Positions 1,085 to 1,319 of a stretch of DNA of 1,511 nucleotides are shown here, in pieces. The first letter of the stretch is position 1. Each line of letters opens with the position of its first letter. The translations under genes were made by a program, and so were the position numbers. The stretch lies in the sequence record OR845888.1; one strand, given 5' to 3'. A model generated the notes under the pieces. That model worked only from the letters and a program-made list of their open reading frames with translations, was not told where the DNA came from and made no database searches. This DNA comes from Escherichia phage ECO95 1-6-1.

Positions 1085-1100
1085 ATAAAATCCTCTTAAG

Positions 1101-1151
1101 TCAGCGCTGCGACATGCAACGCTTAACTAAGAACATTCATCTTAGCGCTGC
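1101..1151. repeat. Two copies of the 8-mer AGCGCTGC (1103-1110, 1144-1151), 41 bp apart, each containing the palindrome AGCGCT; the first is part of the perfect 8-bp palindrome CAGCGCTG (1102-1109)
   Basis: Direct reading: tcAGCGCTGCgacatg and cttAGCGCTGCttttg. Located in the leader just 5' of the SD of the peptide ORF. Confidence 0.35.
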
Positions 1152-1230
1152 TTTTGTCTCTTAGCAGCTCATTGCTTCCCTCGATGCAGAGGCGGTGCAG
1201 TTACCGACGTCGTTCAAGTCCTTTTAGGCT

Positions 1231-1255
1231 GGGTAGTCTTGGTTATCCGCTACCC
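1231..1255. other. Stem-loop: 6-bp stem GGGTAG/CTACCC with a 13-nt loop
   Basis: Plus strand gggtag(1231-1236)-tcttggttatccg-ctaccc(1250-1255) is a perfect 6-bp inverted repeat. It lies inside the predicted leader. No U-tract follows on either strand, so it is not a classical intrinsic terminator. Confidence 0.3.
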
Positions 1256-1290
1256 CTTCAGCTGCCTGTATATCTCCGTGCTATGTATGA

Positions 1291-1319
1291 ACTATAACTA
1301 CTTAAATCAGGGAAGTCAA
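1291..1319 (-). promoter_or_regulatory. Sigma70-type promoter: -35 TTGACT (1319..1314), 17-nt spacer, -10 TATAGT (1296..1291); predicted start site near 1284 on the minus strand
   Basis: Read on the minus strand: GTTGACTTCCCTGATTTAAGTAGTTATAGTTCATACA. Both hexamers are 5/6 matches to consensus with the optimal 17-nt spacing, and an A/T-rich stretch (AATTGAAAATAGTTG) sits immediately upstream like an UP element. It lies about 30 nt downstream of the stop of the upstream ORF and about 200 nt upstream of the first ATG of the operon. Confidence 0.55.

Follow-up and report, generated by a model that had tools for sequence, protein, structure and literature searches.

The stretch of DNA considered here, hereafter the window, comprises 1,511 nucleotides (nt) of Escherichia phage ECO95 1-6-1 (sequence record OR845888.1), with its genes on the minus strand. 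At one junction, 264 nt (1348..1085) separate an upstream open reading frame (ORF; 1501..1349, stop codon 1351..1349) from the ATG at 1084, as against 13 nt or less, or an overlap, at the others (7 nt, or 1 nt if the start is the GTG at 981; an overlap at 736; 13 nt between the stop at 547..545 and the ATG at 531; 2 nt between the stop at 330..328 and the ATG at 325). A preliminary description, drawn from the letters of the window, had remarked on this long gap amid tight junctions and had proposed for it a TTGACT-17-TATAGT promoter, a leader of about 200 nt, a 6-bp hairpin and a segment able to pair with the Shine-Dalgarno (SD) sequence of the next gene. Each of these has a counterpart in our analysis, the hairpin as two of 6-7 base pairs (bp; H4 and H6 in Table 1) and the SD-pairing segment at a place other than the one proposed. 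On comparison with related phages, the leader is a conserved structured RNA of 189 nt and seven helices, and not a spacer; beyond what had been described, it occurs in three copies per genome, is modular in build and contains an anti-sequestor helix.

Five wastewater phage records, among them the 43-kb genome OR844702.1, match the window at 99.9% identity; more distant relatives are two Escherichia phages, P64441 and PAS7, which belong to the Slopekvirinae (Autographivirales; KP34/phiKMV-like). In these two the corresponding segment is part of the early region and precedes the genes for primase, helicase and DNA polymerase. As the phage RNA polymerase gene is placed late in this group, the gene order suggests that the long early and middle region is probably transcribed by the host polymerase.

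A repeated, covarying RNA family

The leader is present three times in the genome matching the window, with copy B 1.8 kb downstream of the window copy and copy C after the DNA polymerase gene. These paralogs are about 70-75% identical, each lies behind a near-consensus sigma-70 promoter, and the differences among them are concentrated in the helices and are compensatory. A covariance model built from six copies returned 20 matches, 19 of them distinct, among them a full-length match in the window; the others extend the family to phages PAS7, P64441, phiKDA1, SDFMU_EhYP and Entb_48, as well as to several IMG/VR and metagenome contigs.

Support for the structure comes from two kinds of alignment. 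RNAalifold on plain MAFFT alignments recovered compensatory changes in 23 of 38 pairs with eight sequences and in 21 of 42 with six. In the model-based alignment of the 19 distinct sequences, 97.2% of the 606 cells in the seven helices are standard pairs, and double changes are seen in 25 of the 36 pairs (134 cells, against at most 14 in slid controls); none of 500 shuffles reached the observed value. The four pairs of H3, for instance, read CCUC/GAGG, UCCC/GGGA, CCAC/GUGG or GCAC/GUGC in different copies, while the sequences joining the helices of the 5' domain (CUGAAG, UGAACG and GAA) and an AUGAG just before H4 (1172-1168) are conserved. G-U pairs account for 62 of the 606 paired cells (about 10%), and on the opposite strand these would be A-C mismatches, which argues that the selected molecule is the sense RNA rather than the DNA. 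A check for covariation over homologous regions, set beforehand, thus came out in favour of selection on the leader as an RNA structure.

We could not assign this family to any known one. The Rfam scan that had been foreseen for the window (Rfam 15, E up to 10) returned no family, only unrelated matches 35-104 bits below gathering, of which the sole one overlapping the leader lies on the opposite strand. Rfam 15 likewise gave no match for copies B, C and L245, nor at the leaders in the whole ECO104, PAS7 and phiKDA1 genomes or the left end of KP34, and a scan for tRNA and tmRNA found none. A blastn search of the leader against 5,426 complete E. coli genomes was without a match, whereby mimicry of a host leader is rejected. 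Pattern scanning added no members: a search with CTAAG-N-CTTAGTTAAG gave chance matches only among the matches listed, and most matches of a metagenome pattern scan were due to chance and fell inside coding regions. The leader RNA is annotated in none of the annotated records examined, and no description of it was found in the literature on Slopekvirinae, KP34 or phiKDA1 leaders or in surveys of phage RNA motifs, a search that did not extend to the entries of one catalogue with over 10,000 viral RNA candidates (PMC10690425).

Table 1. Features of the leader, its promoter, the neighbouring genes and the boxA sites of related genomes (window coordinates unless a record label is given)
Feature	Coordinates	Strand	Remarks
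Structured leader RNA element	1091..1279	-	full-length covariance-model match, 203.9 bits
5' domain (type I)	1179..1267	-	H0-H3
H0	1267-1264 with 1229-1226	-	covarying alignment
H1	1255-1250 with 1236-1231	-	loop CGGAUAACCAAGA
H2	1206-1203 with 1196-1193	-	covarying alignment
H3	1192-1189 (CCUC) with 1182-1179 (GAGG)	-	local hairpin
H4 hairpin GCUGCU/AGCAGC	1168-1163 with 1152-1147	-	conserved loop AAGAGACAAA
W = GCUAAG, 5' strand of H5, anti-sequestor	1141..1146	-	pairs with CUUAGU 1131-1126
X = UUCUUAGUU, shared strand	1125..1133	-	pairs with W (H5) or the SD region (H7)
H6 hairpin GCGUUGC/GCAGCGC, loop AUGUC	1122-1116 with 1110-1104	-	stacked within H7
Y = CUUAAGAGG, 3' strand of H7	1092..1100	-	includes Shine-Dalgarno AAGAGG 1097-1092
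Predicted sigma-70 promoter TTGACT-17-TATAGT	1291..1319	-	-35 at 1319-1314, -10 at 1296-1291; 10/12 positions
36-bp promoter-containing unit AAATAGTTGTTGACTTCCCTGATTTAAGTAGTTATA	1293..1328	-	exact direct repeat in the closest relatives
First gene after the leader	983..1084	-	33-aa hydrophobic peptide MRNAMYMLVILPLLLLQWAAPFLVIYALIKLFS; no family match
Rha/Ant-like DNA-binding regulator, N-terminal part	2-325	-	PF09669, E 4.6e-12; phrog_63, E 2.8e-28
boxA sites in the genome matching the window and in relatives	L005 37510-37522 (= L001 3960-3972), L020 6468-6480, L003 1783-1795, L037 42456-42468		exact TGCTCTTTAACAA in L005; near-identical (A/C/T)GCTCTTTAA(C/T)AATC(A/C)GG in the relatives
boxA sites in related Escherichia/Enterobacter phages	L298 42062-42074, L164 3892-3904, L173 3212-3224	-	equivalent place; near-identical sequence

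Two pairings of one strand at the Shine-Dalgarno sequence

The 3' part of the leader contains a strand, X, with two possible partners. Folding of single sequences places the SD, in most of the 16 copies folded, within a long hairpin in which X pairs with Y around H6 (helix H7). X is also perfectly complementary to the upstream segment W, and when these two form H5 the SD is free. With sequence anchors we located W, X and Y in 16 distinct copies and then counted their pairs. For H5, 96 of 96 cells are paired, with one compensatory change from G-C to C-G; for H7, the proportion is 89%, with double changes in six of the 12 pairs (17 cells), a level seen in none of 500 shuffles. In one lineage, that of the C copies of L003 and PAS7, all three segments have changed together to GCUAAC, GGUUAG and CUUAAC, flipping the outer H7 pairs from pyrimidine-purine to purine-pyrimidine. 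PAS7_C has a further H7 pair altered from U-A to G-C, and P64441_A has one altered from C-G to U-A, with a G-U retained at the same position in H5.

Under constrained folding, H7 is favoured over H5 in all 14 copies, by 0.2-10.6 kcal/mol (2.6 kcal/mol in the window copy), and in all 14 copies folded the combined hairpin of H6 and H7 has 18-24 bp, interrupted by a conserved internal loop (AA/AG) of 2x2 or 3x3. Of the 16 distinct copies, 13 have their SD within the 3' strand of H7. In the window, the initiation region of the gene behind the leader is more occluded than those of the other four, its SD having a probability of being unpaired of 0.19 against 0.22-0.49. The preliminary description was thus right that the leader contains a segment able to pair with the SD, and its CCUCU is indeed found at plus-strand positions 1192..1188; the identity it gave to that segment does not stand, for CCUC forms the 5' half of H3, a local helix that covaries, on which ground its pairing with the SD is rejected, and the anti-SD segment is X.

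Other structures were considered for this region and rejected. A second register, UUAAG/CUUAA, which would extend H6, is possible in six of the 16 copies and is broken by the very changes in C_L003 and PAS7_C that preserve H7; a pairing of X with the loop of H4 has no covariation as judged by eye. An attenuator based on an intrinsic terminator was discarded too: the base of H7 is AU-rich and followed by at most 3-4 U, and a terminator scan found none in the leader. For a boxA or nut site inside the leader, neither the consensus GCUCUUUA nor the lambda form GCUCUUA followed by a hairpin was found as a family feature: X reads GCUCUUA in PAS7_A and A_L003 only, GUUCUUA in the window and GUCUCUUA, CUACUUA or GAGGUUA in the others, and it is base-paired in both states.

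Modular build, promoters and surroundings

The 5' part of the leader exists in more than one version. A type II 5' domain, with helices Ha, Hb, H2 and H3, is found in PAS7, P64441 and two contigs; it has in common with the type I domain of the window the CUGAAG, a loop containing GAUAA, UGA(A/G)CG and H3, and compensatory changes are present in 13 of its 19 predicted pairs. The copies in Enterobacter phages have a nearly unchanged 3' gate with a further variant upstream of it. In Klebsiella phage KP34 (L297 925-1280), an annotated sigma-70 promoter is followed by an unannotated left-end leader of about 310 nt. By blastn it matches 257 phage records, mostly of Klebsiella Drulisvirus and also of Pectobacterium, Escherichia, Shigella, Erwinia, Vibrio, Acinetobacter and Cronobacter phages, and shares motifs such as CCACGGUAGUGCAGUGGGUAA with the Enterobacter-phage copies. 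Our covariance model did not detect the KP34 leader, for which reason we regard it as a possible distant relative only and not as a member; the KP34-type leaders and the present RNA possibly belong to a much larger superfamily of structured early leaders.

The promoter proposed in the preliminary description is present, and it gains its credibility from the comparison among copies, since a promoter scan of the window by itself does no better than chance (three sites against 2.8 expected in shuffles). In 19 of the 20 copies the best sigma-70 site agrees with at least nine of 12 positions, has a -35 of TTGAC(A/G/T) and lies 196-259 nt 5' of the point where the element ends; for PAS7_A no promoter of its own was detected. 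The promoters read TTGACT-17-TATAGT for copy A, TTGACG-17-TATAGT for copy B, TTGACA-17/18-TAAGAT for copy C and TTGACA-17-TAACTT in the Enterobacter phages, and the first transcribed bases are also alike, e.g., (C)AUAGCAAG. The start site is predicted at about A1286-A1284, some 7 nt past the -10, which would give a promoter-driven leader of the proposed length of about 200 nt up to the ATG. Two further observations concern the other copies in L005, the phage genome matching the window. A second and stronger promoter-like site, TTGACA-17-TATAGT (11/12), lies at 5493-5521, 115 nt upstream of the promoter of copy C, the two forming a tandem pair; and in copy B the promoter and the core of the leader are separated by an additional GC-rich hairpin, GGGAGGCG...CGCCUCCC (40889-40932).

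The promoter of the window copy is part of a 36-bp unit, and the closest relatives have an extra 317 bp between two exact repeats of it (L001 5184-5219 and 5501-5536). This stretch, absent from the window, codes for a 78-aa protein of phrog_9227 (E 1e-43). As the repeats bracket it, either the window came to be without the cassette by recombination between the promoter repeats or the relatives gained it.

Among the genes of the operon behind the leader is that of the Rha/Ant-like regulator; none of the window's four other small ORFs has an assigned function, their family matches being at most weak or to families of unknown function. Elsewhere in L005, two group I introns (RF00028; 65.4 and 51 bits, above gathering) are found at 31551-31804 and 3356-4042. 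In the annotated PAS7 and P64441 genomes the DNA polymerase is given as two adjacent coding sequences, a split that may be related to such introns. A 31-nt direct repeat, TTATATAATACATTYARCTAATRTGTGACAG, with 90% identity between its occurrences at L001 4021-4051 and 4664-4694, stands directly 5' of two other early genes and may be another repeated regulatory unit.

Candidate functions of the leader

The reading that we favour, with a probability of about 0.5, is that the leader is a cis-acting regulatory RNA whose 3' domain gates the initiation of translation of the first gene by sequestering its SD. The leader would be part of an early mRNA transcribed by the host sigma-70 RNA polymerase from TTGACT-17-TATAGT. 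It comprises two modules. The first (H0-H3, about 1267-1179) consists of several helices, with joining and loop sequences that do not vary, and lies behind sigma-70 promoters of this phage group; the second (H4 to the SD, about 1172-1092) would act as a two-state gate. In one state, UUCUUAGUU can pair with the upstream GCUAAG as H5 and leave the SD free; in the other, it can pair with UUAAGAG(G), which includes the SD, as H7, stacked on H6 in a hairpin of 18-24 bp. Because H7 is the thermodynamic ground state, translation of the 33-aa peptide would be gated at initiation. H5 may form first during transcription or be stabilised by a factor bound to the first module, or the hairpin may be opened by cleavage; the candidates for setting the balance between H5 and H7 are kinetics, temperature, cleavage and a factor bound to the 5' domain. 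The structure, its covariation, the competition of the two pairings, the repetition and the link to promoters are observed; translation as the output is inferred from them.

Such a gate has precedents. The expression platforms of riboswitches and bistable mRNAs such as that of lambda cIII use the same device of mutually exclusive helices that hide or expose an SD. Like a riboswitch, the present leader has a conserved, covarying multi-helix domain with invariant junctions upstream, and its H5 and H7 are mutually exclusive helices that overlap the SD. In riboswitches, however, sensor and platform are obligately coupled, which is not so here, as the B copies of PAS7 and P64441 combine the 5' domain with a different 3' part. 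Unlike riboswitches and lambda cIII, moreover, a single type of element fronts unrelated small ORFs in three operons and matches nothing in Rfam. A structured leader that sequesters an SD is hence of a known kind; the family itself, its triplication behind sigma-70 promoters in a virulent phage of the T7 order and its modular build appear to be new.

Several points weigh against this interpretation. The covariation of H5 amounts to one evolutionary event, the remainder of the helix being invariant. In C_L003, PAS7_C and KDA1 the SD lies 5-20 nt downstream of H7, so that H7 cannot be conserved solely for holding the SD. The B copies of PAS7 and P64441 have TTGAC(G/A)-17-TATAGT and a type II 5' domain followed by a 3' part without H4-H7, which makes the 5' domain an independent module with its own role and more than a sensor for the gate. 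Since the copies are followed by first genes that bear no relation to one another, no gene-specific logic is evident. The promoters and the transcription start are predictions; the sample consists of some 16-19 distinct sequences from about ten phages and contigs, many of them paralogs; and the model-based alignment, being fitted to the model, leans toward the structure, though the MAFFT-based results agree with it. As to what the B copies have in place of the gate (L037 2950-3160 and L039 28920-28700, minus strand), their 3' part consists of a hairpin, AAGCCUUC-UGCG-GAGGGCUU, and then UAAGGAG.

A bolder proposal, for which the odds are distinctly lower, is that the 5' domain represents a new class of RNA acting on the host machinery, either as a processive, RNA polymerase-binding antiterminator or as an aptamer for a signal derived from the host or the infection, deployed behind each internal sigma-70 promoter and mostly coupled to a bistable gate at the ribosome-binding site. 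If so, these phages would exert control of host transcription and translation over the whole early programme by RNA only.

Among the rival explanations, the one that survives best, a serious one if still on the unlikely side, treats the hairpin of H6 and H7 as an RNase III site at which cleavage would detach a leader of about 170 nt and unmask the SD, amounting to processing rather than a reversible switch; the two could coexist. Cleavage by RNase III unmasks the SD of T7 gene 0.3 and that in the lambda N leader, and in the T7 order, where this phage is placed, the processing of early RNA by host RNase III is reportedly the classical case, from the work of Dunn and Studier. The T7 early sites (R0.3, R0.5, R1, R1.1 and R1.3) and the hairpin of the lambda N leader are repeated, irregular stems of some 20 bp that contain an internal loop and stand beside ribosome-binding sites in host-transcribed early mRNA; the H6-H7 stem, with its conserved internal loop, has this form in 14 of 14 copies. 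In our folding the five T7 sites appear as irregular hairpins of similar size and stability beside SDs, with z-scores of -1.7 to -3.3 compared to -3.8 for the window hairpin. Further, the outer pairs of H7 are kept by covariation even where the SD is not included, which suggests that the double-stranded RNA has to have a certain length. However, the T7 consensus AAGGUC...GGCCUUUAUGAU is absent from the window hairpin, and no sequence rule predicts RNase III cleavage. Unlike the T7 sites, the window hairpin holds the SD in its stem and has both an anti-sequestor and a separate 5' domain, some 90 nt long, upstream of it; the invariant GCUAAG and the three-way concerted change would go unexplained by cleavage.

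Also serious and compatible with the gate, if somewhat more doubtful, is a role for the 5' domain as a processive antiterminator or anti-pause RNA, comparable to put, which would allow the host polymerase to read through from the early sigma-70 promoters to the late phage RNA polymerase gene. The put RNAs of HK022 are also cis-acting structured RNAs located just 3' of early sigma-70 promoters, and putL and putR, behind PL and PR, are diverged paralogs (PMC9378689) that keep their structure by compensatory changes. The present family matches this in having one paralog, with compensatory divergence, behind each of three early or middle sigma-70 promoters and a 5' domain conserved independently of the downstream SD context. 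A further hint comes from the leftmost early promoter (TTGACG-17-TATGCT), which has no leader: about 15 nt past its -10 stands an exact E. coli rrn-type boxA, TGCTCTTTAACAA, which is conserved in slightly varied form in L003, L020, PAS7, Entb_48 and related contigs. This suggests, on sequence grounds, antitermination by Nus factors in the host-polymerase early transcription of these T7-order phages, and every early promoter would then carry an antitermination signal. Against it, PAS7_A keeps the 5' domain without a detectable promoter of its own, and intrinsic terminators downstream are at chance (6 against 5.2 expected and 14 against 9.6 expected). The architectures also differ: put RNAs are about 70 nt long, with two long stem-loops in a V shape (PMC9378689), whereas the 5' domain, compared by description, has four short helices in 90-110 nt. 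More broadly, put binds the zinc-binding domain of RNA polymerase beta', suppresses termination as well as pausing and belongs to lambdoid phages, while the present leader has about 190 nt, seven helices and an SD gate in a virulent phage of the T7 order.

It is improbable that release of the leader yields an abundant RNA acting in trans or as a decoy, for example by soaking up a host protein, a small RNA, a defence factor or a signal, and produced immediately from the strongest early promoters. Three strongly promoted copies per genome would suit such a role, as would the single-stranded loops GAUAACCAAGAC, AAGAGACAAA and CUGAAG, identical in all paralogs while the helices drift. Yet there is neither a terminator nor a defined 3' end, the element running into the SD and start codon in every copy, and blastn found no complementary target or homolog in E. 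coli genomes.

More remote still is conservation at the level of DNA, with the leader being a repeated promoter cassette, protein-binding site or origin-like element spread by recombination and having no RNA function. The 36-bp promoter unit, an exact direct repeat around a gene cassette present in relatives and absent here, does resemble the PeSL of T4, which are cassettes of a promoter and a stem-loop (PMC2839356): both show small accessory ORFs flanked by repeats of an early promoter unit, at which gene cassettes have been gained or lost. However, the PeSL are short composite promoter-terminator motifs, in contrast to a covarying multi-helix leader of about 190 nt, and recombination between promoter repeats accounts for the insertion or deletion but not for the conservation of the leader. 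Neither the retention of helices by compensatory changes at 70-75% identity nor the G-U pairs, valid on the transcribed strand only, fit such a view.

Least credible of all is that the gap is a small coding gene or the lambda bar-like translated minigene AUG AGC UGC UAA (1172-1161): an AUGAG does stand 5-6 nt after an SD-like GAGGG in most copies, but P64441_C has AUAAG in its place, the type II C copies have no SD-like sequence, the 'codons' vary as strands of H4 rather than as amino acids and the frame, ranging from three to 15 codons, tracks H4 and is thus probably not coding, while on the sense strand 3' of the start site there is no ORF reaching 20 aa, and the leader has no conserved ORF; a translated ORF there is what the preliminary description had named as telling against its proposal.

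The Slopekvirinae (KP34-like) are widely used as therapy candidates against Klebsiella, Enterobacter and E. coli, yet in the annotation of their early regions one hypothetical gene follows another, with gaps that are left unexplained. Our observations indicate that such gaps encode a covarying, repeated RNA, which offers a concrete handle on how these phages control the phase of infection that depends on the host polymerase. The unit of promoter, leader and gate would also constitute a compact natural cassette. Finally, should the 5' domain turn out to bind a small molecule, a component of the ribosome or RNA polymerase, a new class of functional RNA would be at hand.

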